52,741 nt of DNA from Nanobdellati archaeon (GTDB taxonomy: Archaea; Nanobdellota; Nanobdellia; Woesearchaeales; JAADFO01): positions 1 to 52,741 of the forward strand of contig JAADFO010000048.1 of the NCBI GenBank assembly GCA_013152815.1. Reading direction: 5' to 3'. Below the pieces are notes generated by a model that saw nothing but the letters and a program-made list of their open reading frames with translations, was not told the origin of the DNA and did no database searches. The translations under genes and the position numbers were made by a program. Positions 2,141 through 27,997 of this stretch are shown here, piece by piece (the stretch's first letter is position 1; each line of letters starts with the position of its first letter).

Positions 2141-2310
2141 TGGGATGATGAAGGAAGAGCATAATAACGTGATGAAGCGATCCGCCGATCCTGCTCAGGA
2201 AAGAAAGAGTGAGACTGAAAGAGAGAAAGAAGAAGAGAAAGAGAGGAAGACAGGACAGGGGGAAAACAGGACAACATTCCGACTTTTTTATCCTGCCACA
2301 GTGAGAAAAA

Positions 2311-2347: not shown

Positions 2348-2653
2348 ATGGGAACCATCCTCAGTTCTAAGACGAAAGAGGACGGAAGCGTCATCTTCGA
2401 AGTCGTCGTAGATTATGAAGAAGCGCTCCAGCTGCAGGGCCGTCTGAACAACGTCCATCTCTTCTCAGAGGATATCGCCTCCATCGAGACCAAGATAGCG
2501 CCCAGGGGCAAGAATGAAGCGACGACCTATTTTCTGATGCCGCGGGAATTACGGAAGAACCTCACACTGACCAAGAAAGCCCATTGCCAGAAGATCGAGA
2601 CCAAGACCAAGATAATCTTTCTCTATGTGATAGACAAATTAGGCCTTCGATAG
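2348..2653 (+). CDS. Small hypothetical protein with a possible AbrB/MazE-like swapped-hairpin motif
   Basis: 101 aa, globular composition. TKIAPRGKNEATTYFLMPRELR resembles the AbrB-type motif. Sits 4 nt upstream of the KaiC-like gene. Confidence 0.65.
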   Translation: MGTILSSKTKEDGSVIFEVVVDYEEALQLQGRLNNVHLFSEDIASIETKIAPRGKNEATTYFLMPRELRKNLTLTKKAHCQKIETKTKIIFLYVIDKLGLR

Positions 2654-2657
2654 GAAG

Positions 2658-3449
2658 ATGACGACCAGAAAGAGCAACAGGACGAAGAGGACCAGAAGGG
2701 CCGACAGAGGGAACAGCATGACAGCAACAGGCAGGAAGACCAGGACAAGGGACCACAGGACACCCATGGGCATCAGGGGCTTTGATGCGCTCGTCGACGG
2801 AGGCGTCCCTCAGGGAAAATGCATCCTCCTCAGCGGCACACCCGGCACCGGGAAGACCATCTTCTCCCTGGAGTACATCTATCAGGGAGCGGTACGGTTC
2901 AAAGAGAAAGGGCTTTTCGTCTCCTTTGAAGAACAGGCAGAGAATCTCAGGGCTCAGGCAGCAAAATTCGGATGGGACTATCCGTTGCTCGAAAAGCAGG
3001 GCATCGTCACCTTCCTCAACATCCCGGTGAGTGAGATCAAACAGAACACCGTCGATGAGATCGTCAACTTCATCAGGAAGAACAGGATCAGAAGACTGGT
3101 CATCGATTCGCTCTCGGCCCTCGCCATCAACTCACCAACGGCGCATGTGAAGGTCACCGATATCACCGCCTATAGCATCCAGCGTTTCATCTATTCTTTC
3201 GTCAACAGGCTCAAAAGCCTCCGGGAGGTAACATCCCTCCTCATCTCCCAGACGCAGGAAGGCCAGCTGTCCCGCGACTCGGTCTCTGAATTCGTCTGTG
3301 ACGGCATCATCACCATCAACTATGAGGCGCTTGGAGGAGAGTACTCACGCAGCCTGATCGTCCGCAAGATGCGAGAGGTCAACAACGATGAGGATGTGCA
3401 TCCGCTCGAGATATCCAAGAAAGGGATCATCATCCATTCGCTTTCCTGA
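2658..3449 (+). CDS. KaiC-like (RecA superfamily) single-domain ATPase
   Basis: Motifs: GIRGFDALVDGGVP, Walker A GTPGTGKT, catalytic SFEE, Walker B LVIDS, SEFVCDGII and RKMR finger. The N-terminal ~35 aa are Arg/Thr-rich, so the start may lie downstream. Confidence 0.92.
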   Translation: MTTRKSNRTKRTRRADRGNSMTATGRKTRTRDHRTPMGIRGFDALVDGGVPQGKCILLSGTPGTGKTIFSLEYIYQGAVRFKEKGLFVSFEEQAENLRAQAAKFGWDYPLLEKQGIVTFLNIPVSEIKQNTVDEIVNFIRKNRIRRLVIDSLSALAINSPTAHVKVTDITAYSIQRFIYSFVNRLKSLREVTSLLISQTQEGQLSRDSVSEFVCDGIITINYEALGGEYSRSLIVRKMREVNNDEDVHPLEISKKGIIIHSLS

Positions 3450-3602
3450 ACACGGCAAGCGGCGGAGGAATAAAGAACGGGCATTCGGTCTTTCTTTCCC
3501 CCGTTCATGCACACCATCCTCTCCCCATCACCTTTGGGTACGTCGGGGAAACCCCGTCTAACGTTTCCAGATATCAACAAAGCAACAGAAGAAGCGATAC
3601 CG

Positions 3603-4265
3603 ATGATAGCACGATGGACCAACAGCTTCGTCAGACTGATGGGAGGCCATGGCATCTTCCGCTTCGACAGGAACGGTGTGCTCCGGGTGGCAGGGGTGGA
3701 GGCCCTCATGCTGCCCATGACAAGCTTTGCCATGCAGCAGTTCCTGCTCAACAAGTATCTCGACAGGCACATCGTCCAGGACATCTTCTATCATACGGGC
3801 AAGATCCAAGGAAAGGTCGCCGTCCGCATCCTCAGGGACAAGTTCGGCATCAAGGACCCGAAAAGGATATTCTCCATGATCATGGAGCAGTACAAGATGG
3901 TGGGCATGGGACGGAACGAGATCCTGAAGTTGGACCGGAAGAACCATATCGTGCTCCTCAAGAAGGTCGTCGCACCCTATGAAGAGAAATATCTCAAGCT
4001 CTTCGGCACGCAGAAGGAACCTGTCAGCCAGGGACACCGGGGAGCCACGGCGGGCATCTTCGAGGAGATCTTCGGGGAAGAGATGGTCACCATCGAGAAG
4101 CAATGCAAGGTCCAGGGCAAGCAGTTCTGCCTCGAAGAGACATTTCCTACGCGCCTGATCAAGAAGAAGGACCTGAGTCCCATGGAGAAGCGACAGCTTC
4201 CTTCGCCCGTATCACGATACCCTGAGCTCAGACAGCTCGAACAGACCATGCATTACCTGAGATGA
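3603..4265 (+). CDS. V4R (4-vinyl reductase-like) small-molecule-binding domain protein
   Basis: GMGRNEI...PVSQGHRGATAGIFEEIFGEEMVTIEKQCKVQGKQFC is the V4R signature. Start is uncertain (3507 or 3603). Confidence 0.8.
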   Translation: MIARWTNSFVRLMGGHGIFRFDRNGVLRVAGVEALMLPMTSFAMQQFLLNKYLDRHIVQDIFYHTGKIQGKVAVRILRDKFGIKDPKRIFSMIMEQYKMVGMGRNEILKLDRKNHIVLLKKVVAPYEEKYLKLFGTQKEPVSQGHRGATAGIFEEIFGEEMVTIEKQCKVQGKQFCLEETFPTRLIKKKDLSPMEKRQLPSPVSRYPELRQLEQTMHYLR

Positions 4266-4361
4266 TCCTGTTCTCTGAGATGGTCCCGGAAGGTCAGAAA
4301 GAGAAACCATCGAAGAAGGCCGGAGAGGAAGAATCGAAGAGGGAAGAACAGGTTCTCTTCT

Positions 4362-5768
4362 TCAGAGTGCCCGTCTCAGGAAGCGCGGAGGATTCTCCAG
4401 GTCGACGATCTCCAGATAGGCCTGCCGTTCTATGCCGTTGACCGAGACGGTCAGAGGAGTGTCCATGGGGACCCCGATCTTCTTGTAGAGGTCATACTCA
4501 TCGGCCTCAAGGATCTGGACCCAATGGGTGGCACCCTTCGCCCGCGAGAAGCGGAAGGCCTCGAAAAGGAGCTTGAGACCCACCCCTGCCCGGACATAGG
4601 GCATCCGGATCCATCTCCCTGGCTCGATGATCCTTGCGCCCTGCTGGCGATAGTGGTCAAGCGGATAGAATGCGTCGGCGGGCAGCTTGTCCCGGGGACT
4701 GTCCTCCACAAGACGCATCGTCCCCAGGAGCTTTCCATGATGGCTTGCGATGAGATGATAGGCGTGCTCGTCAAACGCATCGGCATCGGTGAGCGGATGC
4801 CTGTAGAAAGGAGGTGTGTGTCCCTTCCGTTCGTTGAGATAATGGTAGCGGAAACGATAGAGCGAAGGAAGCTCTTCGGGCAGCGCTTGCCGTATGACAA
4901 GGTCATCCATGGGAAGGCCGGCGTAGACGATGCCTTTCTTCACCGCCAGAAGGAAGGCCTGCTTCATATACACTTCCTTCCCGGGCAGGGTGTCTGCTGC
5001 CAGGACATCGCTGAATCCCACATACTCCAGGAGGATCCTCTTCATCCGCTCGGTGGAAAAATGGTTCTTGATGTTCGCATCCAGAAGCTGGTTGACCATG
5101 CTGACGATCTGCAGGTCCTGTTGCCTGTCCTGAAGACGGCCGGTCTGCAGCAGCTCGGCCAGAAGCCCGCTCGTCAGTATCCGCACGTCCTGGTCGGGTT
5201 TGGGCCCGGAGACGACGAGGATCCCGTCTTTCTTCAGAGCACGGTAAGCCTGGTCCAGGGCATGATAGGGATCGTCGAGAGCGTAGAGCACGTTGAGCAT
5301 GGCCGCTCCGTCATAGCGGTTGGGGGGCAAGGTGAAACAGGAAGCGTCCGCAAGATGCAGATCGACGAGATGCTCAAGCCCCTCCTGCTGCACCTTGAGC
5401 TCTGCCTTTTTGAGCATCTCCTCGTTGGAATCATAGCCGTCGACGTGGATGCCCTTCTTCGCGAGGAGGATGGTCTGGTTGCCGGTCCCGCATCCGATGT
5501 CGGCGACGGCGGAACAGCCTTGGAGGATGTCTGCCACCTCCTGCTGCAGACGCCGATACTGGGAGTTGGTCCCCACGACGGCATCATAGCTCTCGGCATA
5601 TCTCGTGAAGAGCGCGGAGAAGGTCACCTGGTCCGCAGGAAGATCGAGCAGTGCACCGAGTCTTGCAAGATCATCCTGACCGAGACGGTTCCGAAGAGAA
5701 TCATCAGGAACAGGAGGGGACTGTCCTTCCGAAGCAGAGGATATCGGGTCAGGTATACGAGAATCCAT
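4362..5768 (-). CDS. Class I SAM-dependent methyltransferase fused to a GNAT domain of LuxI/FeeM (N-acyl amino acid synthase) type
   Basis: N-terminal half: ADIGCGTG, GYDSNEEML, NVLYAL, ALKKDGILVV. C-terminal half: LYRFRY...DAFDEHAYHL...LLGTMRLV...IEPGRW...YKKIG. Confidence 0.8.
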   Translation of the reverse strand: MDSRIPDPISSASEGQSPPVPDDSLRNRLGQDDLARLGALLDLPADQVTFSALFTRYAESYDAVVGTNSQYRRLQQEVADILQGCSAVADIGCGTGNQTILLAKKGIHVDGYDSNEEMLKKAELKVQQEGLEHLVDLHLADASCFTLPPNRYDGAAMLNVLYALDDPYHALDQAYRALKKDGILVVSGPKPDQDVRILTSGLLAELLQTGRLQDRQQDLQIVSMVNQLLDANIKNHFSTERMKRILLEYVGFSDVLAADTLPGKEVYMKQAFLLAVKKGIVYAGLPMDDLVIRQALPEELPSLYRFRYHYLNERKGHTPPFYRHPLTDADAFDEHAYHLIASHHGKLLGTMRLVEDSPRDKLPADAFYPLDHYRQQGARIIEPGRWIRMPYVRAGVGLKLLFEAFRFSRAKGATHWVQILEADEYDLYKKIGVPMDTPLTVSVNGIERQAYLEIVDLENPPRFLRRAL

Positions 5769-5771
5769 GGA

Positions 5772-7403
5772 TCATGCACCTCGCCGGACAGGGAAAGAGG
5801 ATTCTTGATGATGACTTTCCGGGTAGTGGAACCAATAGGCTCCCTTGCGGTGTTCCTGGAGCTGCCCCTCAAGACGACGTGAGCCCACCAGCTGATTGGT
5901 CATCATGCCCGTGCTGTCCAGCTGGGGGATCATGACACGGGAGACGTCGATCCTTGCATGCAACTCCTCGAAGATCGAAGGCAGGGAGAAGGAAGGATCC
6001 ATATAATAGACCGGACCGAGCAAGGCATCTCGGACAGCTGGCCTGGATGCACGATGCCCATTGGACGGTCTTCCTGCCTCCTGCTGCCCATCAAGCCCGG
6101 CAGGATCAGCATAAACCGCATCATCAGCATGATAGAAACCAGGCGTCGGTTCTCCAGAGAGGACCTTCTCCAGATAGGCCCGCCCTAGTGCGGTCCCGGG
6201 CAGGACGGCGACGCCCAAAGAGACACCGACCACATGAGGATCGAGAGCCTGTATATCATCAAGGGAACGGAACATCTTCTCAGGGCTGTCTCCGGGAAAA
6301 CCGAAGAGAAGCTCATGGGCGACAGGGATTCCGTTGTCCTGTGCAAGCCGCGTCGCCTTCGCAATCTCCTCAAGGCCATACCATTTGCCCATCTTCCGGA
6401 GCATATTCCGGTCAGTATGGTCGACACCGAAATTGATCCCCGCCCCATTGGCCCGGGAGAGGAGACGCGCATATTCTTCGTCGAAGGGTGACGGCTGCGC
6501 ATAGAGCCAGAAACGCAACTGATTCGTCCCATACCCTCGCGAAGCTATGGCCCTCAGGACATCTTTGGAATGGGCGAAGGGAATGTTGAACTCACTGTCG
6601 GCCGAATGGATATCATGGACTCTCTGACCGATGAGCTGATCGAATTCAGAGAGCGTGTCCTCCAGGGAGACAAGGGCGTATCCATCCATCTTGGCCTCAG
6701 GTTCAATGCAGTAGGTTCTGCAGGGCATGGTACAGCCATGGGACGTCCGGATGGCACCGAGCCCGCCATGCTCATAGTACCATGCATTGTCCACCAGGGA
6801 ACGGTCGACCTTTGAAAGTATCCTTGTTGCACGTCCATCGATGAAGAGAGGGACCTCATCTGCCGACACCGATGCTCCATCATCGCCTGCAATGCCCATA
6901 GCAACAGGCTTTCCTGCCGATGAAGCCCTCACTGCGAATTGGCTTGCGAGGGACGCTCCCCTGGAAAGCCCGTCGGCAAGCTCCACGAGGACCTGGTCAC
7001 CCTGGCCCTGGACACCATAGCGAAGACCAAGATAGTGCAGCAGGGCTTCCGGCTGTGAGGAGAACCCTACTCCGCCCAGGATGATGCGCTCAGGGTCGAT
7101 GTGACCCTTGATCCGATCCACAAGACGATGATGTTCAGGCAGGAAAGAACCCTTCTCTGGCAGGTCGAAGAAGGAAGGGAAATAGAGATCATGGGTATTC
7201 CGAAGGGTGAGGGCGACCAGCTCAGGGCGTGACCTCTGAAAATAGCTGTCGATGGAAGCAGAAGGATCATCGGTCAAGGTGAGGTCGAGGATCTCGACAT
7301 CGTGGCCTTCCTGCCGTAGGGCCGAACCGAGAACGTCAAGCGCATAGGGCGCGATAGGGGGGACAAGTATCCTGTTGAGATTGACCAGGACCACATCGGT
7401 CAT
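5772..7403 (-). CDS. Cobalamin-binding radical SAM methyltransferase, TsrM (tryptophan 2-C-methyltransferase)-like
   Basis: PPIAPYALDVL, LRNTHD, GGVGFS, WYYEHGGLG, GCTMPCRTYCIEPEAK, DSEFN, INFGVDH and HELLFGFPG all match my recollection of the TsrM family. SD AGGTGAT precedes the ATG. Confidence 0.85.
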   Translation of the reverse strand: MTDVVLVNLNRILVPPIAPYALDVLGSALRQEGHDVEILDLTLTDDPSASIDSYFQRSRPELVALTLRNTHDLYFPSFFDLPEKGSFLPEHHRLVDRIKGHIDPERIILGGVGFSSQPEALLHYLGLRYGVQGQGDQVLVELADGLSRGASLASQFAVRASSAGKPVAMGIAGDDGASVSADEVPLFIDGRATRILSKVDRSLVDNAWYYEHGGLGAIRTSHGCTMPCRTYCIEPEAKMDGYALVSLEDTLSEFDQLIGQRVHDIHSADSEFNIPFAHSKDVLRAIASRGYGTNQLRFWLYAQPSPFDEEYARLLSRANGAGINFGVDHTDRNMLRKMGKWYGLEEIAKATRLAQDNGIPVAHELLFGFPGDSPEKMFRSLDDIQALDPHVVGVSLGVAVLPGTALGRAYLEKVLSGEPTPGFYHADDAVYADPAGLDGQQEAGRPSNGHRASRPAVRDALLGPVYYMDPSFSLPSIFEELHARIDVSRVMIPQLDSTGMMTNQLVGSRRLEGQLQEHRKGAYWFHYPESHHQESSFPVRRGA

Positions 7404-7500
7404 CCCGCATCACCTTGCCTCTTTTCTGAAGTGTCACCCATGCCAGGTCACCCATGCCGTCTTTCTTAATGCTCTTTTAATGCTCTTAGAAGTCCTGATT

Positions 7501-7516
7501 GTTTAATAAGCTTTTC
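7501..7516 (-). promoter_or_regulatory. BRE/TATA-like promoter for the TsrM-like operon
   Basis: The minus strand reads GAAAAGCTTATTAAAC about 100 nt upstream of start 7403, in an AT-rich intergenic region. Confidence 0.45.
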
Positions 7517-7851
7517 AATATATTTATCCATTTTATCATGAATCAGGACTGTATTCTATGATACAGGAAAAAGAATTAGAGAATAAGAGATGTTTAATAG
7601 AGAGTTTATCCAATAATGATAGCCACATGGCCTGTCGAAGACCAGAAAAGAGCAGGAAGCAGCAGTGACAGAAGAAGAGGACACAGAGGAGGAGAACATG
7701 CGATCTGCAGCCAGTGATGAAAAGTTATACCAAAACAGGCATAATTTATCCTGATTTCTACAATAACTCTTTATAGTCAGAGCTCCTCTTATCCTACAAG
7801 ACCAAGGCCGATGAGACCAACGATATTCATCTCATCATTCATACACCGGGG

Positions 7852-7879
7852 GTCCCTGCTCTTGGAAAAGAGCAGGGAC
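7852..7879. other. Perfect 12-bp hairpin with GGAA (GNRA) loop
   Basis: GTCCCTGCTCTT-GGAA-AAGAGCAGGGAC, followed by AACCTTTT. Function unknown. Confidence 0.6.
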
Positions 7880-8065
7880 AACCTTTTGGCCTGCGATTCT
7901 ACCCCACCACCCACTGGTCTTTATAAGCCGATACTTAGGTCAATACTGAACAGAATCCAGGGAAATGCTGATGAGCATCATTGACAGGGGCGTACGATAA
8001 GGCATCATAGGAAAGGTCGCTGCAGGAAGAGAAAGACAACAGAACACGGAAGAAAAAGGGATAGC

Positions 8066-8653
8066 ATGGACAAACTCAACGAGATAACGAACGACATGAG
8101 CGTATTGGTGGTCATGAACGAGCATGCCTATGACACAAAGACGCCGGCACTCCTGCAACAGCTGCATGAAAGCAGACGCAATTTCTGCTATGTGTGCCTG
8201 GCACGGCCCTACAGCGAGATAAAAGAAAGGTTCCAGAGCAGTTTCATACCGACGACGCAGTTCCATTTCATCGATACGTTGAGCAGCCATTATGAGAAAC
8301 AGGAAGAGCAAGAGGACTGCACCTTCCTTCCTGACCCCATAAAACTGAGCGTCCTTTCAGAGACCATCATGCAGAAGATGAAAGAGAAGCGATGTTCAGG
8401 GGTCGTCTTCGACACCTTCAGCGCACTGCTCAGCTATAAGGCTGATTTTGAGCTTCTCCACTTCATCAACGACCTTTCCATGAAGACGAAAGACAAGAAC
8501 ATGAGCAAAATCCTCTTCTTCGAGCGGAAGATCCGTCCCTATTACGAGAACTCGGAAAGGCTGGCCAATGATCTTGCCTTGTTCCTGGACAGGACCATCT
8601 GGCTCAACGGAAAGGAAACCCACCAAACCCACCCTGTGCAGGATCAGCGATGA
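8066..8653 (+). CDS. Inactivated KaiC/RecA-fold protein (no Walker A)
   Basis: CYVCLARPYSEI...FHFIDTLS...VVFDTFSALL...LALFLDRTI follows the RecA-fold strand order but has no GxxGxGKT. Paralogous to 22830..23357. Confidence 0.7.
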   Translation: MDKLNEITNDMSVLVVMNEHAYDTKTPALLQQLHESRRNFCYVCLARPYSEIKERFQSSFIPTTQFHFIDTLSSHYEKQEEQEDCTFLPDPIKLSVLSETIMQKMKEKRCSGVVFDTFSALLSYKADFELLHFINDLSMKTKDKNMSKILFFERKIRPYYENSERLANDLALFLDRTIWLNGKETHQTHPVQDQR

Positions 8654-8843
8654 CCCCGCTTCCTGGAAGGGCCCATCTTGAATATCTTGAGCACATAATC
8701 AGACGCATGAGAAAAAGGCGAAGAGAAGAACATAACACATAAATACGATGAAGGATATGATATGCTCATTACGCTCCTCGGACAAGAGATCCACACGGGG
8801 AGAGATAGAGACAGAGAGAAAATAAGTGAGGCGTAGGAAGACC

Positions 8844-9212
8844 ATGAAGACCATACTTGCAGTGGATGATGAAGAAAGCCTCAGACAGCTTATCGAAGCC
8901 ATCTTCGAACAGGAAGGATACCATGTCCTGACCGCATCGTCAGGACAGGAATGCCTTGACCTCCTCCAGAAGGAAAAGCCCGACCTTATCCTCATGGACA
9001 TGATGATGCCCGGGATGAGCGGAAGGGAGACCATAGAAAACATCAGGAAGAATCCCAAGACCAAGGACCAGAAGATCATCTTCCTCACCGTAGCAAGGTT
9101 CTCTGAGACAGGCAAGGATGTGCTTGGCAAGCTCAAGGTGCTGGATTACATCACCAAGCCGTTCGAGAATGCGGACCTTATCAAGACCGTCAAGAAGCAC
9201 CTGGGCAGATAA
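8844..9212 (+). CDS. Stand-alone response regulator receiver (CheY-like)
   Basis: Motifs: ILAVDDE, phosphoacceptor LILMDMMMPGMSG, FLT and YITKPF. No output domain. Confidence 0.95.
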   Translation: MKTILAVDDEESLRQLIEAIFEQEGYHVLTASSGQECLDLLQKEKPDLILMDMMMPGMSGRETIENIRKNPKTKDQKIIFLTVARFSETGKDVLGKLKVLDYITKPFENADLIKTVKKHLGR

Positions 9213-9300
9213 GGGGACGGATCCTTCGGATCGCGTAATTCTTAATTCTCTATCGGAGATCCGATAACCCAGATCTTTCCCGGCAACGTAATGTCCAGAA

Positions 9301-12300
9301 TCAACCTTCTGATCCTTTCCCGCTCTGTTTCTCTTTTCTTGTCCGGGACACTCTGCTGCTCTTCCTTGCCGCGCCCCTGCGGGAACCTGATCTTCGGAGA
9401 TCGTCTCGCGGGGCATCAGCTTTTCCAGCATCAACTCTTCCCGGCATGATGTTGATGGTCTTCTTCATGGTCTTCGGAGCTTTCAGAGGAAGGATGAACG
9501 AGAATGTCGAGCCGTTTCCCGGGCTGCTCTCTGCCCATATCTTCCCGCCCATGGCCTCGATGAACCCTCTGCTGATGGAGAGCCCGAGGCCTGACCCGCC
9601 TATCTGTCTGGTCAGAGGAGAATCGACCTGATAGAAACGCTCAAAGATCTTCTCGAGACTCTCCGGGGGGATGCCCTTGCCGGTATCAGAGACACTCACC
9701 TTGATGTCCTTCTGTCTCCTCTCGACAGTGAGGGTGATGGTCCCCTTGTCAGTATAGTGCACTGCATTGTTGACCAGGTTACGGATGACCTGGATGAGCT
9801 TGTCCTTGTCGATAAAGACCGAGGGAAGCGAGCGGGGGATATGAGTCTGGAAGCGAAGGCCCTTCGCTTTCACCTGGAGCGTTACCTGAGGCAAGCAGGC
9901 ACCGAAGACCTCACCAAGATTCACTTTCTCCCAGGCAAGCTTGAGGGTCCCGATATCCATCCGGGAAAGCTCGAGGATGTTGCTGATCAGCTCCCCGAGC
10001 CGGGTGGTATCGTTATAGATTATGGTCAGAAACTTCTGACGCTTCTTCTTGTCGTTCGCCACCGCCGGATTCTTCAGGAGATCGGTGAATCCCTTGATGC
10101 TCGTCAGCGGAGTCTTCAATTCATGGGCCGCGATGGAGATGAACTGGTCCTTCTGGAAATCCAGCTTCTCCAGTTCGTTCATGCTTTCCTTCAGCTTTCT
10201 TTGGGCGATGACGAGCCGGTTCTTGGCCTCGTCAGAATCCTCAAGTATGTTGAGCATGGCCGCTTTGTTCCTCTCGAGCTCGTCCACCTTAGCCCTGAGC
10301 TCTTTCGTCTTCCTGCGGACGATCTTCTCGAGATCCTTGCTATGGCCTGCAAGCTTCTTGTTGGCCTCGTTTAATTCTTCTGTACGGTGCTTCACGGTAA
10401 GCTCAAGAGTCGTATTCATCTTTGCAAGCTCTTTTGTCTGCCGTTGGACTTCCATGCGAAGATTCTTCGTGAGGATGATAAAGGAAAGGATCCCAAGAAG
10501 CACGACCATCACGACGATGGTGATTGCAGAACGCCAGATCCGGGAAAGAGATGCTGAGACACCTGCATAGATGGTGTCGAGGGGCTCGACGATGACAAGG
10601 GTCCATGTATCTTCCCCAACCTTGAAGGACTCGTAGACCCCGAGTTTCTTCGCATCAGGAGCGTCTCCAGACGAGACAATGAACGATTCAGAACCCCGGA
10701 CACCCAGGAAGAAGGAGCCCGATGGAGGAACTCCCCCCTGCTTCTCTGTCGTCAAAACACCGGACAAGATCCCTGCCAGCCCCGAATCCTCTGAACCGCT
10801 ACCATGGAACGTCTTGTTATCTATCAGCAGATGCACATCAAGACCGGTCTCTGCTCCTATCGACATGATATGACGGTCGAGAATAATCTGCAGGGGGATG
10901 TTCATCCTCAGCAGACCCTGTTGGGTGTTGTTCCTTTCGATGGGAACGATGACAGAGAATACCGAATCGTTGTACGCTGTCCGGAAAAGAGATGATATGA
11001 CCGGTTCGTCCTTTTCCAGGGCATCTTTCACTCCTGGTTTGTTCGTATAGTTCTTTTCCTTTCCTTCATAGAATCTATTGAACGGCACCCGCATCAGGAC
11101 CATGCCGTTCTTGTCCATCAGATAGGCACTCTCTATGTTTCCCGAAAGACGTGCATAGAGATGAGAGAGGACAAGAAACGAAGCCCTCTTTTCTCCTGCA
11201 TCCCATGCACCCACACCTCCTGCACCCAATAGCTGCGGGTCTTTGCTTGTAATGTAAGCATCATTGAGAATGGTGGAGAACTCTGAGGTTATTTCATTGG
11301 CTTTGATGTCCGCAAGCAGGGAAAGGCGGGCTTTTGTCTGCGAAAGGGTCTCGGTTTTGTAACTGATGGCTGACTTGTCAGCATTGAACAAGAAGGTCGC
11401 GATGATGATGAGGAGGACCATGCCCAGGATGACCATGATGAAATTTGCCTTGTAGCTCAGGTAACCCTGCCGGAAAAGGGCAAATCCCACCAACAGTGCC
11501 ATGAGGACAGGAAAAATGAGCGGGATGAGCGGATTGCGCAGACCGAACAGGCTTTCAGAGAGCGCATGAGGAATGAGGAACGCAAGGGAAAGAAGAAACC
11601 CATAGAAGAAATATTTCATCCGTTTATCCTTGCGTATGAGATATTCAAGGAAGAGTACGGTGAAAGAGACGACATAGAGGAGGATGAGGAGCAGGATTAA
11701 AAGGTCAAAATAAGCCCCCCGGACCAGACCAACAGTACCGTAGGCAGCCAGGAGGTCTGGCTGCAAGACCGCGCCTTTCACGACCTGGTCGCTGAAGAGG
11801 GTCCAGCTGATCATCATGATGGAAAGCAGATGCATGGTCCCCAGGACAACCCGATGAAGATGATATCTCGCGACACTGAACATGGTCAACAGATAATAGA
11901 AAGAGAACATGTACGCCAGGACAAAGATCGTGCGCGCCAGATAGGTGACCAAAGAAAGATCATGGACATGCAACCGGAAGGTATAGGTCATCAGCAGCAG
12001 CAACCCAAAGACCAGCATAAGCCGATAGGAGATGGTGACGCGTTTGTCTGATGAATGCCGGTTGATGGACCAGAACAGGAAGAAATAGATCAAGAAGCCG
12101 AGCAAGAAGACAGAGAGATACGTATAATTAAGCGACGAGAAAAGAGAGGGGATCATGACGTTGTCATCTTCGAAAGCATATTCATCCAGATAGGTGGTGG
12201 CAGCGACAGTAAGACCCACGCCGTCTGCGGTCCTTCGGCGAACCGGAGTGATATACATGTACTTTTTCCTCAGGGAACCATCAGGATCTTTCCAGTCATA

Positions 12301-12747
12301 CAGCCCCTCTGCGGTACGCCCCCCCTCGGTCTTGACCATGATGCCCCAAAAGCTCGGCAGTTTCCCGGCCAGGGTGTGGAGGTCCATATCGACGATCTTC
12401 GGATCCTTGTGAAAACGGGCAATGAGCGTATCATAGTCTGTCACCGCCGTGTATCCTGTCTTGCCCACCCTCTGGACAGCCAGGGTCTGGAAGTAGGCAT
12501 CCTGCTGGAGATCCTGCAGGGTCATGTCGGGATGGAACAGGAGATAGCTCCCTATCTGCTTCGCAACATCCAGGGCCGTCTGTTTAATCGCCGTCTTTCC
12601 ACGCGAGAAGGCCAGAGAGTTCCCGGAAGCATCCTGAACAGACTGAGCGATGACCGAAGGAGCAATGAGCAGGGAACCCGGCAGGATGACAAGCAAGGAC
12701 AATAAAACAAGCCTTCCGGGCCATCCCCTTGACTGACCAGAGATCAT
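9301..12747 (-). CDS. Membrane sensor histidine kinase: signal peptide, Cache-like, 7TM block, TM, dCache-like, TM, coiled coil, HisKA, HATPase_c
   Basis: H-box FISIAAHELKTPLT, N-box NLVNNAVHY, DTGKGI, FERFYQ and GSGLGL. Nine hydrophobic helices follow the signal peptide. Cache-like motifs: VGKTGY...YDWKDPDG and AYLMDKNG...PVISSLF. Confidence 0.93.
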   Translation of the reverse strand: MISGQSRGWPGRLVLLSLLVILPGSLLIAPSVIAQSVQDASGNSLAFSRGKTAIKQTALDVAKQIGSYLLFHPDMTLQDLQQDAYFQTLAVQRVGKTGYTAVTDYDTLIARFHKDPKIVDMDLHTLAGKLPSFWGIMVKTEGGRTAEGLYDWKDPDGSLRKKYMYITPVRRRTADGVGLTVAATTYLDEYAFEDDNVMIPSLFSSLNYTYLSVFLLGFLIYFFLFWSINRHSSDKRVTISYRLMLVFGLLLLMTYTFRLHVHDLSLVTYLARTIFVLAYMFSFYYLLTMFSVARYHLHRVVLGTMHLLSIMMISWTLFSDQVVKGAVLQPDLLAAYGTVGLVRGAYFDLLILLLILLYVVSFTVLFLEYLIRKDKRMKYFFYGFLLSLAFLIPHALSESLFGLRNPLIPLIFPVLMALLVGFALFRQGYLSYKANFIMVILGMVLLIIIATFLFNADKSAISYKTETLSQTKARLSLLADIKANEITSEFSTILNDAYITSKDPQLLGAGGVGAWDAGEKRASFLVLSHLYARLSGNIESAYLMDKNGMVLMRVPFNRFYEGKEKNYTNKPGVKDALEKDEPVISSLFRTAYNDSVFSVIVPIERNNTQQGLLRMNIPLQIILDRHIMSIGAETGLDVHLLIDNKTFHGSGSEDSGLAGILSGVLTTEKQGGVPPSGSFFLGVRGSESFIVSSGDAPDAKKLGVYESFKVGEDTWTLVIVEPLDTIYAGVSASLSRIWRSAITIVVMVVLLGILSFIILTKNLRMEVQRQTKELAKMNTTLELTVKHRTEELNEANKKLAGHSKDLEKIVRRKTKELRAKVDELERNKAAMLNILEDSDEAKNRLVIAQRKLKESMNELEKLDFQKDQFISIAAHELKTPLTSIKGFTDLLKNPAVANDKKKRQKFLTIIYNDTTRLGELISNILELSRMDIGTLKLAWEKVNLGEVFGACLPQVTLQVKAKGLRFQTHIPRSLPSVFIDKDKLIQVIRNLVNNAVHYTDKGTITLTVERRQKDIKVSVSDTGKGIPPESLEKIFERFYQVDSPLTRQIGGSGLGLSISRGFIEAMGGKIWAESSPGNGSTFSFILPLKAPKTMKKTINIMPGRVDAGKADAPRDDLRRSGSRRGAARKSSRVSRTRKEKQSGKGSEG

Positions 12748-12848
12748 CAGTTCACCATCACCTTCAGTTCACCATCACCTTCAGTTCACCATCACCTTCA
12801 GTTCACCATCACCTTCAGTTCACCATCACCTTCAGTTCACCATCACTT
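12747..12848 (-). repeat. Tandem repeat, 6 x 17 bp (minus-strand unit AGGTGATGGTGAACTGA)
   Basis: Plus-strand unit TCAGTTCACCATCACCT starts at 12747, 12764, 12781, 12798 and 12815 (perfect) and at 12832 (one mismatch). It spans the whole gap between the PAS and kinase genes. Confidence 0.97.
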
Positions 12849-15263
12849 GCTGCCCTGTTTCGCTTCCAGCTGTCGTATCCTCTTCTTGAGCTCCACCATC
12901 CGTAGTTCCCTGCCGACGGTAAATTTCTGGAAGCGTTCCAGGTCATCCACTTTACGCTGCAATTCGCTGTTCATCTTTTCACGCTCATGTTCTGCTGCCC
13001 GTTCTTTTGAGATATCCCGGATGGTTGCCTGAAGAGCGAATCGCTTATTCTTGCTGAATCGGGAAAGGAGGATTGTTGCGGGAAAGGTGGTTCCGTCTTG
13101 CCGTTGATGCACCCAATCAAAATAGGCATGCCCTTCCTTAAGCGCCATGGAAATCATCTTTTTTGCCTTCATCCTGGACAAGGTCCCGTCGGGTTGCTCA
13201 GGGGGAGAAAGATCCCACGGTGTCTTGGTGGTGAACGCTTCTTCACTCTTGCAACCGAAAAGGCTCAGAGTCGCCTGATTGCCCTCGATGAATCGCCAAC
13301 TCGGAGGAGCCAGGACCATCAACGCATCAACGGAAGAATCAAAGAGGGTCTTGAACTTGTTCTCACTCTCCCGAAGGGCAGTCTCTGCACGTTTTCGGTC
13401 AGTCACATCGATTACCGTCCCCAATACGCGACGCTTGTGCCCTTTCGCATCATAGTCCAACTCTGCGTGGGCATGAAGCCAGAGCTCCTTGCCATCACGT
13501 CGCCGGATACGATGGTCCAGGTCAAGAGCAGCGGTTCCCCGGAAGGCCATACGGAATCCCTTCTTGATCATGTCCCGATCACCAGGATGCACATACTTCA
13601 TCAACATGTCAAAAGTGACCTCATCGGTTCCGGGTTTGAGTCCATAGAGTTCGATGACCTCTTCAGAGAGATAGATCTTTCCTGTCTTGAGATCCCAATC
13701 GAGGAAACCCATCTTCGATACACGTTGTGCCTTGAGCAGACGACGCTGGAACTCCTTCATCTTCTCTTCTGCATCTCGTCTCAGGGTGATGTCCCTGCCC
13801 TCAGCAAGGACCATCTTGATCTTTCCCTGTTCATCATTGATGATGTTATTATACCAAGAGATGACTTTCTCTTTTCCGTCCTTGGTTCTTATGACGTTCT
13901 CGTGATGGAACAGAGGCTTTCCTTTAAGCAGACCGTTCAAGACGCTCCTGACCGGTTTTTGCTTTCTTGCCGGGATGAAGAGAGAGAACCAGTCCTTTCC
14001 CATGACCTCGCGCTTCTTGTAGCCCGTTATCCATTCAGCGCCTGCATTGAAGAGGATGATGCGTCCTTTCTTGTCCAGACCCACAATCAGACCGGGAGCG
14101 GTCTCGATGACCCGCTCAGAGAACTCCTTTTCCTTCTTTAGCTCCTGCTGATGCGCTTTCTCTTTAGTGATGTCCCGTTGGACAGCCATGAAACCCATGA
14201 TCTTTTGCTCATTGTCCAAGATCGGACTGAGCACCGCCTGCATGGTGACGAGCTTACCATCCTTCTTACGGTTGATGAATTCCTGCAGGATCGTCTCCTT
14301 CCGAAGGAGCCGTCTCCAAAGGGCGCGGTAGAAAGGCCTCTTGAAATGGTCTGATTTCAGGATGCGGGGAGTCTTTCCTGTAACGTCTTTCCAGGCATAG
14401 CCATAGAGCCTTGTGAAGGCAGGATTGATATGCTGGATGATGCCCTCCCTGTTGGTGGTGAAGATGACATCATTGGAGGTCTCAAAGCCTTTCATGAGCC
14501 AGCGCATCTGCTGCTCAGCCTCGTGCTGTTGGGTGATGTCACGCAACGATGTGTGAAGGCCGACTATCTTCCCCTGCTTTCTCAACGGAGTGCTCCACCA
14601 TTCGACCATGACAGGCCCACGGGGAGTGAACACTCTAGTTATCCCTCTGTTCTGCTTCCCTCTTTTCAGGTCGAGAAGGCTTTTGAGTATGGCTGGCCAT
14701 GCGCTCTTCGGCACAAATTCCAGCATAGAATGACCGATCAGGTCTTTTGGCCTGAACCCGTATCGTAATATGGTCTGATTGACCGAGAAGATCTTTCCCT
14801 TCAGGGATACGAGCATCTGGATATCCGGAGAATTATCGAATAGAGCACGAAATTCCTGTTCACGCTCGCTGAGCATCGTCTCCTGCTTCACCCTGCGGGT
14901 GATATCCCGAAAGACGGTCTGGTTATAGAGTATCTTTCCTTTGGACTTCCTGACATGGACTACGCCTTCCACATGAAGACGTTTTCCACGCTTAGTGATG
15001 AAATCAGTTCTCACGAGGGGCATCTTCTCTCCTGCGTTTATTCTCCGGAGGACAGATCTGCAGCGGGACCTAAAATCAGGATGGATGATATCGAAAAGAG
15101 TCATCTTCTCAGCTTCTTTTGAGGTATATCCCAGAATGCGACGCCAGGCCCTGTTGGTGTAGATCAGTTTTCCTGAAGGGGAGACACACTGCACCATATC
15201 AGAGATGTTCTCAGCGAGGTCCCTGTAGAAAGAGTCATCAAAGCGGTATCTTGAACCGGCCAT
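12843..15263 (-). CDS. Soluble multi-PAS sensor (6 PAS/PAC domains) with a C-terminal coiled coil and no catalytic output domain
   Basis: Six PAS units end in RDIT, RDIT, RDIT, RDIT, IDVT and RDIS. C-terminus is LERFQKFTVGRELRMVELKKRI. ATG 15263 has a purine-rich SD; alternative start is GTG 15287. Confidence 0.92.
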   Translation of the reverse strand: MAGSRYRFDDSFYRDLAENISDMVQCVSPSGKLIYTNRAWRRILGYTSKEAEKMTLFDIIHPDFRSRCRSVLRRINAGEKMPLVRTDFITKRGKRLHVEGVVHVRKSKGKILYNQTVFRDITRRVKQETMLSEREQEFRALFDNSPDIQMLVSLKGKIFSVNQTILRYGFRPKDLIGHSMLEFVPKSAWPAILKSLLDLKRGKQNRGITRVFTPRGPVMVEWWSTPLRKQGKIVGLHTSLRDITQQHEAEQQMRWLMKGFETSNDVIFTTNREGIIQHINPAFTRLYGYAWKDVTGKTPRILKSDHFKRPFYRALWRRLLRKETILQEFINRKKDGKLVTMQAVLSPILDNEQKIMGFMAVQRDITKEKAHQQELKKEKEFSERVIETAPGLIVGLDKKGRIILFNAGAEWITGYKKREVMGKDWFSLFIPARKQKPVRSVLNGLLKGKPLFHHENVIRTKDGKEKVISWYNNIINDEQGKIKMVLAEGRDITLRRDAEEKMKEFQRRLLKAQRVSKMGFLDWDLKTGKIYLSEEVIELYGLKPGTDEVTFDMLMKYVHPGDRDMIKKGFRMAFRGTAALDLDHRIRRRDGKELWLHAHAELDYDAKGHKRRVLGTVIDVTDRKRAETALRESENKFKTLFDSSVDALMVLAPPSWRFIEGNQATLSLFGCKSEEAFTTKTPWDLSPPEQPDGTLSRMKAKKMISMALKEGHAYFDWVHQRQDGTTFPATILLSRFSKNKRFALQATIRDISKERAAEHEREKMNSELQRKVDDLERFQKFTVGRELRMVELKKRIRQLEAKQGSK

Positions 15264-15323
15264 TCTCCCCTCTTTTTTTCTTGTCACTTACTTCCTCGTA
15301 CAAAGCTCATAGAAAGCAGTAGG

Positions 15324-15345
15324 TTAAAAACTATATATTCCTTTC
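15324..15345. promoter_or_regulatory. TATA-like element in the divergent promoter region between the PAS gene and the second KaiC-like gene
   Basis: TAAAAACTATATATTCCTTTCT can be read as BRE+TATA on either strand. Confidence 0.4.
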
Positions 15346-15508
15346 TGCAAGAGAGGGATAAACACAGCCGCAACAGACATCACTCTCCTCCAATACTCAC
15401 AAAAGAATAAATAGCCGGCCAAGAACAGGAGACTAGCAACATGAGATAGTGCTGCATACCTGCCGGATACCCAAGGGGGACCGACAAGCAGTTCAGACAA
15501 GGCATACT

Positions 15509-16801
15509 ATGGACGCATCGAAAGAACATCCGTTCATCCTGCATGACGGAACACCGGCCGCCAGTTTAGTGGAACTGCTCCATGCTGTCGAAGAAGCGCC
15601 AGAAGAGATCTTTCTTTATCATGTCACGTCGGAAAGGAATGATTTTGAGAACTGGATAACTGCCTGTCTCCACGAGCCTGAGCTAGCGCAGAAAATCTCA
15701 GGACAGCCGAAAAGGAAGAAGTTTCTCAGAATCCTGAAGAAAGCCGTCAAGAGACAAGAGAAGGATCTCAAGAAGCGCATACCTGAAGCTGGAAGTTCAT
15801 CTCCAGAGAACAGAGAACCTGAAAGAGACAACCACCTCAAACAGACGAACGTGCCGAAAGAGACAGAAGAACCATCTTTCTTTTCTGCGCCGGTTCCGGA
15901 AGAGATGCCGACCCTGCAAGAACTCGAAGAGACCCTCTCCCCTGATGATAACGAAGATAACAACACCAAAAGCCAGAAGCGACCGAACCAGCCCATCGCC
16001 AGGGAAGAGATCCTGCGCACAGAGTTCCAGGACGATGAGTCGGCCGGAGCGGAAGATGCCGAAGAAGAAGTGGCAAGGATAACCATCGGCGTCCCGGGAT
16101 TTGACGGTCTCGTCGGCAAAGGCGTCCCCAAAGGAAGCGCCATCCTCCTCACCGGCGGACCCGGGACCGGTAAGACGACCTTCGGCCTGCAGGCGCTGCG
16201 ATACGGCATCGAACAGGGAGAGAACTGTCTCTATCTGACCTTTGAGGAGAGTGAGAAGAACCTCATCCGTCACCTGAAGGATTTTGGATGGGACCCACGT
16301 CAGGCCATCGCAGAGAGACGCCTTATCATCAAGAAAGTCAACCCCATGCATCTCAGCAGATCGGTCGAGGCCCTGCTTGCACGTGCAAGCGGAGAGCTCC
16401 TCATAGACATCGATGAGGTGGAAGGGATCATCCCCTCAGGATTTCAGCCCGACCGGGTCATCCTCGACTCGCTCTCGGCAGTGGCAGCTGCTTTTGCCGG
16501 GACGAAAGAAGGATATCGCATCTATGTCGAGCAGATCTTCAACCTGTTCGAGCGCAGGGGGACCACATCGTTCCTCATCAGCGAACGGGAACAGACCACC
16601 GACAAGTACGCCAGGGCGGGAATCGAAGAGTTCCTGGCAGATGCCGTATTCATCTTCTACAACATCAGGAGGGAGAATGAGCGCGTCTCTGCCCTGGAGA
16701 TCCTCAAGATCAGGGGGACTCCGTTCCATAAGAAGATCGTCCCCTTCAAGATCACCGAAGGGAAGGGCATCGTGGTCTATCCTCAGGAAGCTGTCTTCTG
16801 A
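15509..16801 (+). CDS. KaiC-like ATPase with N-terminal DUF5752-like domain and acidic disordered linker
   Basis: N-terminus FILHDG...LVEL...FLYHVTSERNDFENWI...ELAQKI. ATPase motifs: Walker A GGPGTGKT, LTFEE, VILDS, GIEEFLADAV, LKIRG. Alternative start GTG 15449. Confidence 0.9.
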   Translation: MDASKEHPFILHDGTPAASLVELLHAVEEAPEEIFLYHVTSERNDFENWITACLHEPELAQKISGQPKRKKFLRILKKAVKRQEKDLKKRIPEAGSSSPENREPERDNHLKQTNVPKETEEPSFFSAPVPEEMPTLQELEETLSPDDNEDNNTKSQKRPNQPIAREEILRTEFQDDESAGAEDAEEEVARITIGVPGFDGLVGKGVPKGSAILLTGGPGTGKTTFGLQALRYGIEQGENCLYLTFEESEKNLIRHLKDFGWDPRQAIAERRLIIKKVNPMHLSRSVEALLARASGELLIDIDEVEGIIPSGFQPDRVILDSLSAVAAAFAGTKEGYRIYVEQIFNLFERRGTTSFLISEREQTTDKYARAGIEEFLADAVFIFYNIRRENERVSALEILKIRGTPFHKKIVPFKITEGKGIVVYPQEAVF

Positions 16802-16946
16802 AAACGAACGCGCTCTCCCAAAAAGAAGGTTCAGGGCCAGAGAAGCGAAAGTTTATCCCGTTTCGTCAGATGTTTACCCCGTTTTTCTTCGTAACATGAA
16901 CAGATATTTAAGGTTACACCATCTAGGAGAGTAAGGTGCGTAAGTG

Positions 16947-22829: not shown

Positions 22830-23357
22830 ATGGCTGAACTAGGAGAATCACTTGAAAAGAACCAGATAGTCCTCTGCGTGCTCGCGAAAGAGGGTTATCG
22901 GCAGGGACGGGTCGAACTTATCAGAAAAGCCAAGGACAGCATCCAAAAGATAGCCTATGTCACTTCAAACCTCCCGTATCAGAGCATAGTCGACGAGCTC
23001 AGAAAAGAAAACATCCCCCTGGAGGGTTTCTATTTCATCGATGCAGTCACGAGGACCGTGCAGGAACCGCCCCCTGCTGAAAACTGCACCTTTGTTGAAG
23101 GGCCCACCGCGCTCACCGACATCAGCCTTGCCTTCTCAGAGGCCATCAATGAACGGCAGTGCGACGGCTCGTTCATAGACACGATCTCCACCTTCGGCAT
23201 CTATCAGGATAAGGGCGCAGTCGTCAAACTCGTCCACAACCTGGTGACCAAATCAAGGGTAGCGGGAAAGAAAGGGATCTTCCTGGCGCTCAGAGAAGAC
23301 GGGGAAACGTTCATCAAGGACATCTCCCTCTTCATGGATACCGTCCTCGAGTTCTGA
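22830..23357 (+). CDS. Inactivated KaiC/RecA-fold protein (paralog of 8066..8653)
   Basis: AYVTSNLPYQSI...FYFIDAVT...ENCTFV..P..LTDIS...FIDTISTF...ISLFMDTVLEF. No Walker A. Confidence 0.72.
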   Translation: MAELGESLEKNQIVLCVLAKEGYRQGRVELIRKAKDSIQKIAYVTSNLPYQSIVDELRKENIPLEGFYFIDAVTRTVQEPPPAENCTFVEGPTALTDISLAFSEAINERQCDGSFIDTISTFGIYQDKGAVVKLVHNLVTKSRVAGKKGIFLALREDGETFIKDISLFMDTVLEF

Positions 23358-23489
23358 GTCAGACCGGAAAGACGGATCCATCCGGCTCGTCGCGGCGTTC
23401 TGTCATTCTTTTTCTTCACACATCCTGATGAATGAAGGATAATGAATCAATGCATACATCCAGAAACCATAGGAAACTATAAGAAGGAC

Positions 23490-27063: not shown

Positions 27064-27301
27064 CTTATCTAATAAGTATAATAACAAAAACTTTATAAAT
27101 CATTTTTATCTGATAAGAAGATAAATCCATAAAGACTTATTTGATGAGACTTTTCATGACCTGTTGGGGACAAAAGGAACATCATCAAACAGAGGAAATC
27201 CAGAAGAATAGCATCGAGAAAAACACTTATCTGATAAGAAAATACTAAGTCATCATGAGACAGCACACAGGAAGAATATGAAAAGATACTTATATGATAA
27301 G
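27064..27301. promoter_or_regulatory. Array of five CTTATC-N-GATAAG palindromes around a TATA box
   Basis: 27064 CTTATCTAATAAG, 27105 TTTATCTGATAAG, 27136 CTTATTTGATGAG, 27226 CTTATCTGATAAG (perfect), 27289 CTTATATGATAAG. BRE/TATA AAAAACTTTATAAA at 27086-27099. Confidence 0.75.
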
Positions 27302-27367
27302 AGTCCATAAATCCCTGATTTCCTGATTAAGCACACCCAGACCAGCTCTGGCAGTTGATATTTGTGC

Positions 27368-27997
27368 ATGAAGAGCAAAGACATCAACGAAACCCCTGAA
27401 GCGACGTCAAAAACGACAAAAATGAGGGATAGTGAGAGACAAAAGAGTGAGGTTTCCCGTAGCGTCAGCATCCAGCAGCCGATGACGAATGAAGCGAATG
27501 GACCGCTCCATCTCCTTCTTGACCTTCTTGAAAAGAAGCATCACATCAGCTACAGCGAACTCATCACCCTCCTTCAGAAGAGACAGGAAGAACAGCTGAA
27601 GGGGCGTGTCCCTGCAAGACTCTTCGCAGACCGGAAGCTGGGCGTTCTCGAGATCCTGGTACGATACCTGAAAGACCACCGGCAGATGTCCTTCAAAGAG
27701 ATCGGAAAGATCATCCAGAGGGACAACAGGACCATCTGGGCGTCTTACCATAACGCCTGTCAGAAGCGACAGAAGATGCAGCTTCCAAAAAAGCCGCAGA
27801 TCTACATACCGCTCGTATCGTTCGCTGACCGAAGGCTCGGACCTGCAGAGAACGTCATCTATCATCTCCATGCCAAGGAACAGATTCCCTTCTCCAGGAT
27901 CGCAGAACTTCTCAGACGTGATCCCCGGACAGTCTGGACAGCATTTGCCCATGCAAAAAAGAAAATGAACAGCAGAGAGGATGCCGATGCTGCATAG
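27368..27997 (+). CDS. Tandem helix-turn-helix DNA-binding protein
   Basis: Internal duplication: VPARLFADRKLGVLEILVRYL...SFKEIGKIIQRDNRTIWASY and IPLVSFADRRLGPAENVIYHL...PFSRIAELLRRDPRTVWTAF. Start uncertain. Overlaps the giant gene start. Confidence 0.8.
   Translation: MKSKDINETPEATSKTTKMRDSERQKSEVSRSVSIQQPMTNEANGPLHLLLDLLEKKHHISYSELITLLQKRQEEQLKGRVPARLFADRKLGVLEILVRYLKDHRQMSFKEIGKIIQRDNRTIWASYHNACQKRQKMQLPKKPQIYIPLVSFADRRLGPAENVIYHLHAKEQIPFSRIAELLRRDPRTVWTAFAHAKKKMNSREDADAA

Follow-up and report, generated by a model that had tools for sequence, protein, structure and literature searches.

Within the window, the whole 52,741-nucleotide stretch analysed here (contig C48 of a 1.49-Mb archaeal genome that is 90.8% complete), two operons face each other tail to tail at positions 2348-7403. 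The sensor operon (2348-4265) encodes an AbrB-like protein, a KaiC-like ATPase (KaiC1) and a stand-alone V4R protein, and the enzyme operon (4362-7403) encodes a methyltransferase fused to a GNAT acyltransferase, together with a TsrM-like cobalamin-dependent radical SAM enzyme. We hypothesize, at about even chances, that these operons form an autoinducer-like circuit that makes and senses a small molecule in the manner of luxI/luxR, a reading drawn from the sequences and their comparison. The layout, its repetition in 21 genomes from 20 families of the order with interchangeable enzymes, a shared promoter box, and the folds and catalytic motifs of the proteins are direct observations. Judging from the enzyme families, the product would likely be a small methylated N-acyl amide derived from tryptophan, and by analogy with related effector domains the V4R protein likely binds it. 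The organism is assigned to the DPANN archaea because the homologues are labelled Nanoarchaeia or Nanoarchaeota and the ESM Atlas clusters are mostly Nanobdellota.

Linkage of V4R and acyltransferase genes in relatives

The association was found from both sides. A profile of the methyltransferase-GNAT fusion family, built without genomic context and run on 400 genomes with four candidates scored per genome, so that misses are likely, matched nine other genomes. A V4R gene faces the fusion homologue within 1.5 kb in eight of these nine, and in the ninth it lies 2.7 kb away on the same strand; three genomes (G486, G646 and G556) are unpublished, the ratio becomes 6/6 without them, and the tallies of both the fusion and the V4R profile partly rest on them. 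The V4R profile matched 58 of 291 genomes, and the loci of 54 of these (four unpublished genomes were left out) and of G401 were read, giving 69 V4R genes. The V4R tree separates a short clade of 26 genes (SH-aLRT 97). After exclusion of five short genes inside long-class loci and six outliers, 37 loci with long or double V4R genes were compared with 21 short-clade loci. At 21/37 of the former and 0/21 of the latter, V4R has a FeeM-like GNAT no more than 8 kb away (Fisher p 7e-6, overstated by kinship, with the classes drawn after the neighbours had been seen). The hidden Markov model for this GNAT was seeded from 14 of the 21 loci, and at 16 of the 21 the gene also has its own Pfam GNAT match. 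Among the 16 remaining long or double loci, four end at V4R, two end after a methyltransferase, one holds a cut GNAT-methyltransferase gene and nine have other neighbours.

The receiving side of the layout is uniform, with KaiC1 directly upstream of V4R at 27 of the 35 long or double loci where that gene is visible, and the gap between the V4R stop codon and the facing gene is mostly 40 bases or less. In seven of ten whole genomes chosen from these loci, PF21926 (FeeM) matches once, at the V4R locus; the other three have no match. The tailoring partners vary and include a different B12 radical SAM family in seven genomes, an acyl-CoA dehydrogenase, a heme-oxygenase-like enzyme, ThiF and an FAD oxidase. 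The GNAT of G481 is paired with a ThiF gene like PRK14851/14852, presumably comparable to an OxzAB-like pairing.

Other V4R settings were seen as well. Long or double V4R genes stand beside UbiA and an FAD reductase, an aromatic ammonia-lyase, an aminotransferase-aldehyde dehydrogenase fusion, or an LPG-synthase-like gene and a reductase at L144:8047-12212, L273, L265, L264, L266 and L276. Short-clade V4R genes (L237, L258, L270, L272, L161, L185) are followed by FIST-domain genes, some with LuxE, AMP-binding or aldehyde dehydrogenase genes, among the 34 downstream genes scanned; as a side reading, these loci would be a second V4R system.

The rarity of the TsrM-like clade leaves some room for an island of accessory DNA in which genes gained separately came together by chance. 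The clade occurs in 2/401 genomes of a class-level sample and, at clade level, in 2/401 of the order sample (at E 1e-30 the latter gives 15/401 genomes, 13 of them through remotely related radical SAM enzymes that score no more than 185 bits), and in G330 and G600 the gene is solitary near a TrmB gene. The linkage in both directions and the shared box, which also precedes the TsrM-like gene of the window, speak against such an origin; we consider it extremely improbable for the block, although it may still hold for the surface genes, and largely refuted for the V4R-acyltransferase core. An early reading from G330 and G600, in which the enzyme pair was an unrelated insert, was ruled out by the fusion- and V4R-profile searches of relatives. 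The GC content at third codon positions of the two enzyme genes (0.61 and 0.71) lies inside the genome's range, and they therefore show no sign of recent transfer. Lone TsrM-like genes divergent from a TrmB-family regulator were recorded in two Nanoarchaeia genomes, at L003:10704-12985 and L133:5718-8803.

Enzymes, candidate receptor and promoter box

Besides its sequence match to TsrM (Table 1), the protein encoded at 5772-7403 resembles TsrM in structure (Foldseek TM 0.79 to 6WTF), and it belongs to a clade of 39 sequences that is sister to TsrM proper (FastTree support 1.0). It combines a B12 domain with the radical SAM fold and keeps the Arg below the cobalamin and the Glu at the unique iron as R68 and E271, the equivalents of TsrM Arg69 and Glu273, which define the non-radical chemistry of TsrM (PMC8992657, in the portion available). 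Its cluster motif is CX3CX3C, as in AprD4 in the alignment, while the other clade members shown have CX3CX2C; most members of the clade are 460-510 amino acids long. On the metagenome contigs L006/L007 and L011 the TsrM-like gene precedes a related methyltransferase; the genome of L006/L007 (cluster of P0121) is absent from the samples, and the downstream V4R position lies outside its visible sequence. Elsewhere, a clade gene directly follows NRPS-like (non-ribosomal peptide synthetase) genes in a cluster labelled Bryobacteraceae (L009:3-10871), and another is followed by a cyclodipeptide synthase (PF16715) on a contig of 31% GC (L072:1213-3391).

The fusion protein scores 52 bits for PF21926 (cut-off 27), and its relatives are found in Nanoarchaeota and one bacterium of the candidate phyla radiation (CPR). 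A profile of 11 such GNATs matches acyl-homoserine lactone (AHL) synthases (E 2e-13) and FeeM (E 2e-12) about equally, and PF00765, the LuxI family, is not listed for the protein encoded at 4362-5768 and is weak in two relatives. A Glu that is nearly invariant in the family aligns with the catalytic glutamate of FeeM. The genome has one AMP-binding enzyme and SufBD.

The V4R protein has 252 amino acids and no fused AAA+ or helix-turn-helix domain. Its model is closest to the sensor domains of DmpR, PoxR and MopR (Foldseek E 4e-10, Z 19.5 over 190 residues). Of the residues of MopR, H106 and W134, which anchor phenol (PMC9556785, available in part), are not kept in the profile alignment; the equivalents of C181 and C189 are Cys, and that of C155, Asp in 14 of 17 relatives, is Ser here. 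Gln101 is conserved in 16/17 and Gln128 in 15/17 long-class proteins, and these class-specific residues, together with the lost His and Trp, suggest that the ligand differs from phenol-type effectors. KaiC1 has intact Walker A/B, EE and KxR motifs. The KaiC-like proteins of the window are single-domain, not double-domain, and reach about 105 of the 546 bits of circadian KaiC (TIGR02655).

The motif GGATAA[AT] occurs in 15 of 18 enzyme promoters (2.4 in shuffles) and 12 of 16 AbrB-like promoters (1.7 in shuffles), counts made on the promoters from which the box was derived, and in 53 of 267 unlabelled promoters of the same loci. It was read off the motif result for the enzyme promoters and usually lies just upstream of a BRE/TATA-like element (BRE, B recognition element); in four cases it forms an inverted pair 11-12 bases apart. 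The window has seven box sites in 3170 intergenic bases (0.93 expected), including one at 23437. Three sites precede the TsrM-like gene of L006, which was not used to derive the box; none was found before five other TsrM-like genes, and in G330 one lies inside the neighbouring gene. A palindromic motif search of AbrB-like promoters gave no clear motif (information content 7.8-8.9 vs 7.1-8.2 shuffled), and no promoter- or terminator-like site was found between the convergent operons with bacterial patterns. From a weak fold match, the 101-amino-acid protein is a candidate binder of the box. The only other box-plus-TATA arrangement of the genome, at G000:C4:1893 (+), precedes a gene of 366 amino acids, a possible regulon member. 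A perfect 12-base inverted repeat with a 4-base loop lies at 7852-7879 in the divergent promoter region.

In the proposed mechanism the TsrM-like enzyme would C-methylate an indole with cobalamin taken from outside. The GNAT domain would then form an amide from acyl-CoA, which is proposed as the donor because no acyl carrier protein (ACP, PF00550) was found in this 90.8% complete genome, and the fused methyltransferase would add a further methyl group. The product would enter the V4R pocket, V4R would alter the activity of KaiC1, and the AbrB-like protein would act at the box abutting the BRE/TATA and raise enzyme expression, giving autoinduction. A KaiC-like protein, CirA, is required for the quorum response of Haloferax (PMC13464002, available in part).

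The resemblance of the V4R model to the DmpR, MopR and PoxR effector domains could also indicate sensing of a substrate or host cue, with V4R binding a host or environmental indole, aromatic acid or acyl compound and inducing enzymes that modify or neutralise it. In the XylR family, V4R domains recognise the substrates of enzymes encoded in the catabolic genes next to them, so that the same linkage would be expected; the shared box fits equally well, and FAD oxidases, acyl-CoA dehydrogenases, one aromatic ammonia-lyase and one hydrolase are among the enzymes opposite V4R. The commonest partner is nevertheless a bond-forming acyltransferase of the LuxI/FeeM type, joined by tailoring methylases, by ThiF or by an enzyme resembling heme oxygenase, and the cassettes read showed neither uptake genes nor genes for downstream catabolism, which makes this explanation unlikely in our view. 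The V4R fold is also common to the palmitate-binding Bet3/TRAPP subunits, and some loci hold UbiA or LPG-synthase-like genes. The enzymes could thus make or modify a lipid, secondary metabolite or protein inside the cell, with V4R-KaiC as feedback control or acyl carrier and no signal between cells. TsrM-like relatives beside peptide-forming synthetase (L009) and cyclodipeptide synthase (L072) genes agree with such a role, as does the block, where no exporter gene was seen. A sensor unit that stays the same while many chemistries are exchanged opposite it, and the co-divergence of V4R and GNAT, fit private signals better than a structural lipid, and we hold the intracellular role to be improbable too.

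Several points weigh against the make-and-sense circuit itself, beyond the drawing of V4R classes with neighbours in sight and the counting of the box on the promoters that yielded it. XylR-type substrate sensing and the intracellular role predict the same linkage, which is thus common to all three readings. The nine long or double loci with other neighbours hold an LPG-synthase-like gene (three loci), an aromatic lyase, UbiA, an aminotransferase, a hydrolase, a receiver with unknown output, or KaiC. V4R divergence tracks GNAT divergence as a hint only: computed without a species tree, the distance correlation is 0.70 (rho, p 0.003) over nine loci and 0.40 (p 0.04) over 12, that of V4R and KaiC is 0.12 and 0.20, and that of KaiC and GNAT, at 0.40 and 0.36, nearly matches V4R-GNAT over 12 loci. 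The TsrM-like protein scores 303 bits for TIGR04428 (TsrM), under the curated threshold of 500, and the genes of G330 and G600 are solitary. In seven other systems the B12 radical SAM enzyme is of a different family, and tryptophan is therefore not the family-wide substrate. Neither a BtuF-type binding protein nor other B12 proteins were found in the 90.8% complete genome, and the match of the 101-amino-acid protein to SpoVT-AbrB/MazE clusters (Table 1) is under the tool's bar.

Two-component and surface genes around the core

The initial annotation described a larger block, from 2348 to 16801, and every gene that it named was found, in order, by Pfam and TIGRFAM-type matches (Table 1); the conserved core is narrower. 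Genome-wide, and at 90.8% completeness, the block carries the sole receiver, B12-binding domain, V4R, FeeM-like and 101-amino-acid-family genes, as well as all six PAS matches and two of three strong KaiC matches, and its histidine kinase ranks top among five HATPase_c matches. This clustering of sensing genes exceeds chance. The Walker A/B motifs absent from the KaiC-like gene at 8066 are also absent from that at 22830.

Table 1. Genes and GGATAAA boxes of the block and its flanks (window positions; aa, amino acids)
Feature	Position	Strand	Basis
CARDB/Big_13 surface gene, truncated by contig start	ends 2140		
GGATAAA box (TTTATCC on +) upstream of the AbrB-like/KaiC/V4R operon	2287..2293	-	
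101-aa gene of a Nanobdellota family; inferred candidate for DNA-binding output, with a weak AbrB/MazE-like fold	2348..2653	+	no Pfam match; Atlas TM 0.47-0.55
KaiC1, single-domain KaiC-like ATPase, likely transducer	2658..3449	+	PF06745 E 2.5e-53; motifs
Stand-alone XylR_N+V4R protein, likely receptor (predicted ligand-binding)	3507..4265	+	model pLDDT 85; Foldseek
Class I methyltransferase fused to LuxI/FeeM-like GNAT acyltransferase	4362..5768	-	Pfam; family of 15 fusions
TsrM-like cobalamin-dependent radical SAM enzyme, likely indole C-methyltransferase (predicted)	5772..7403	-	6WTE E 1e-78
Three GGATAAA boxes (7523, 7605, 7745) before the enzyme operon, the first just upstream of a BRE/TATA-like element	7523..7751	-	
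Inactive KaiC-like gene (DUF835-like)	8066..8653	+	Walker A and B both absent
Stand-alone receiver domain, start probably ATG 8844	8826..9212	+	Pfam
Membrane histidine kinase: sCache_2-like, transmembrane region, dCache_1, HisKA, HATPase_c	9301..12747	-	
Six-PAS protein, cytoplasmic, without kinase domain	12843..15287	-	six TIGR00229 matches
GGATAAA box in the divergent PAS6/KaiC2 region	15356..15362	+	
KaiC2, second active KaiC-like ATPase, DUF5752-like N-terminus	15449..16801	+	Pfam; Walker motifs kept
GGATAAA box (TTTATCC on +) between KaiC2 and surface gene	16852..16858	-	
1442-aa membrane-anchored surface protein, possible target, link weak	16944..21272	+	NPCBM_assoc

The initial annotation had read the whole block as a system that makes a signal, senses it and deploys adhesins, and it had named scattering of these genes in relatives as the finding that would speak against it. 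No scattering is seen for V4R and the acyltransferase, as their reciprocal linkage and shared box show, whereas the two-component genes are tied to them more loosely: a receiver or kinase gene was seen up to 8 kb away at 12/25 long-class and 1/14 short-class loci (p 0.013, counted where 10 kb or more is visible). In G485 and G437 a receiver is joined to the GNAT in one protein, in G177 weakly so, and the sensor domains of the neighbouring kinases differ among genomes (HisKA_7TM, HAMP, binding proteins). We propose an input layer, common but not obligatory, made up of the kinase, PAS protein, receiver and inactive KaiC. About six head-to-tail copies of a 17-base unit with a GGTGA ribosome-binding-like site and an ATG lie at 12747-12846, immediately ahead of the kinase start, and may reflect either translation tuning or an assembly artefact.

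Making and sensing thus finds support in genomic context for V4R and KaiC, but not for the Cache/PAS kinase as the sensor. The kinase's dCache_1 domain scores 41 bits, under the Pfam cut-off of 45, and the N-terminal Cache has no Pfam match and was identified through an ESM Atlas look-alike (sCache_2/dCache_2, score 0.95). The amino-acid sensor motif of dCache_1AA domains is YxxxxRxW...Y...D (PMC8915833, available in part). No YxxxxRxW was found in the kinase, and the idea that both Cache domains sense tryptophan products was rejected for the absence of the amino-acid motif. The version that makes the Cache kinase the product sensor in place of V4R, with surface proteins under the control of the whole block, could draw on the enrichment of two-component genes near long-class loci, on nearly the same block in G457 and on the boxes at 15356, 16852 and 23437. 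The missing motif, the kinase sensor domains that vary between genomes, and the surface loci described next argue against it, and we regard it as very unlikely.

The claim that the block sits between Ig-repeat surface genes stands in part: the upstream CARDB/Big_13 gene and a giant open reading frame (ORF) from 27969 carry Big-type domains, whereas the downstream gene at 16944-21272 matches NPCBM_assoc only. KaiC2 is 72% identical over its ATPase part to the copy in G401:C140, where the gene order with the surface gene is the same, and homologues of this surface gene lie beside KaiC2 in G401, G202, G457 and G481. Almost all of the block recurs in G457, which belongs to another family, in the order CARDB, KaiC2, surface gene, inactive KaiC, AbrB-like, KaiC1, V4R facing FeeM and radical SAM genes, inactive KaiC, receiver and kinase. 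That block and the box at 16852 favour the deployment of adhesins by the circuit. Against this, surface-gene homologues lie within 8 kb at 3/25 long-class loci vs 2/14 controls (4/15 genomes in wider flanks), no box was found before any of 19 surface homologues in other genomes when the first ATG is used as the start, and G401:C140 and G202:C13 have the kinase-PAS-KaiC2-surface unit but no enzymes on the contigs read. KaiC2 homologues have the box in 3 of 13 cases (1.3 expected). The case for surface control is weak because dCache_1 lacks the amino-acid motif and the box is missing before the surface homologues. We read KaiC2 and the surface genes as a neighbouring module, which may be wired in here though not in most relatives.

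Further surface-related features lie downstream. A second inactive KaiC-like gene (DUF7504-like, 22830-23357, +), 25% identical to that at 8066-8653, is last in the surface operon, with the same order in G401, G202 and G457. The giant surface ORF (27969-52741, +) has at least 8257 codons, is truncated by the contig end, and matches Big_13/Big_7/Big_3_3, DUF2341 and MG2. Four near-copies of TTATCTGATAAG occur in 27065-27301 (6 matches in the window vs 0.1 expected), and a small ORF at 27362-27997, with what by eye resembles a repeated helix-turn-helix, lies between them and the giant ORF. The TTATCTGATAAG repeats are likely a separate operator for surface genes.

The most far-reaching version of the circuit would be a DPANN quorum-sensing system with lineage-specific chemical dialects, in which enzymes are swapped opposite one V4R-KaiC-AbrB receiver. 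Its signal here would be a methylated N-acyl-2-methyltryptophan, gated by the sole receiver and the kinase and switching on adhesins for host attachment. As a whole we find this version quite unlikely.

Relation to known signalling systems

The proposed circuit works like luxI/luxR, yet it belongs neither to that family nor to the XylR regulators nor, by cut-off, to TsrM. With LuxI/LuxR systems, including the CoA-using BjaI and RpaI, it shares the synthase fold, the R, D, R and E positions, and a candidate receptor gene that is adjacent and tail to tail with a shared upstream box. The PDB entries matched are 3p2f, 5w8c and 6wn0 (titled AHL synthase, autoinducer synthase and 4-coumaroyl-homoserine lactone synthase), to which we take the names BjaI, RpaI and TofI to belong. 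It differs in that the candidate receptor is a stand-alone V4R protein tied to a KaiC-like ATPase and an AbrB-like protein, in its varying tailoring enzymes, and in the Trp of the LuxI 'GW' position, which is His here; no LuxR-type protein is among the block's genes, the whole genome not having been searched for LuxR. FeeM (PF21926, PDB 2g0b) is approached in family score and profile match, and it uses acyl-ACP. Here, by contrast, the acyltransferase forms one protein with a methyltransferase and is linked to a sensor operon, in a genome without a detected ACP. From TsrM (6WTE/6WTF), with which it shares the fold and the Arg and Glu equivalents (PMC8992657), the sister-clade enzyme is set apart by its score, its CX3CX3C motif and a neighbourhood with no thiopeptide cluster. 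The V4R protein has the sensor fold and the C181/C189-equivalent Cys of XylR, DmpR, MopR and PoxR (PMC9556785), but not their AAA+ and helix-turn-helix domains or the H106/W134 pair, and carries Gln101 and Gln128 of its own class.

The nearest archaeal parallels, in the available parts of PMC5847659 and PMC13464002, are the KaiC-like hubs and CirA/QarA of Haloferax. PAS proteins, receivers that stand alone and inactive copies of KaiC accompany KaiC-like ATPases there, and surface structures are affected by a quorum response in which a KaiC-like protein takes part. The Haloferax signal is undefined, and the portion of PMC13464002 available lacks the word 'synthase', whereas here the genes of a candidate synthase and a candidate receptor are neighbours. 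Archaea are known to show quorum-type responses, with signals unknown, according to the available part of a 2026 review (PMC13419125). The accessible text of a 2020 survey of CPR and DPANN genomes gives LuxI homologues for CPR only and lacks the word V4R. The module was not found in the literature searched, which covered papers without supplements (e.g., that of PMC7567580); Makarova 2017 may already note KaiC-V4R or neighbouring enzymes.

The logic of the proposed circuit is that of known autoinducer circuits, and the receptor and relay are a new assembly. The window adds a TsrM-like variant that lies in a complete block of sensing and surface genes, and it sets a measured bound on the adhesin claim. 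Further work can draw on a range of different biosynthetic cassettes, among them an unstudied sister clade of TsrM, and the synthase-receptor pair with a shared operator makes signalling by DPANN symbionts directly testable on soluble proteins. If the reading is true, KaiC-like hubs would gain a defined ligand input and a transcriptional output, and a small-genome archaeon would possess an undescribed chemical signalling circuit.

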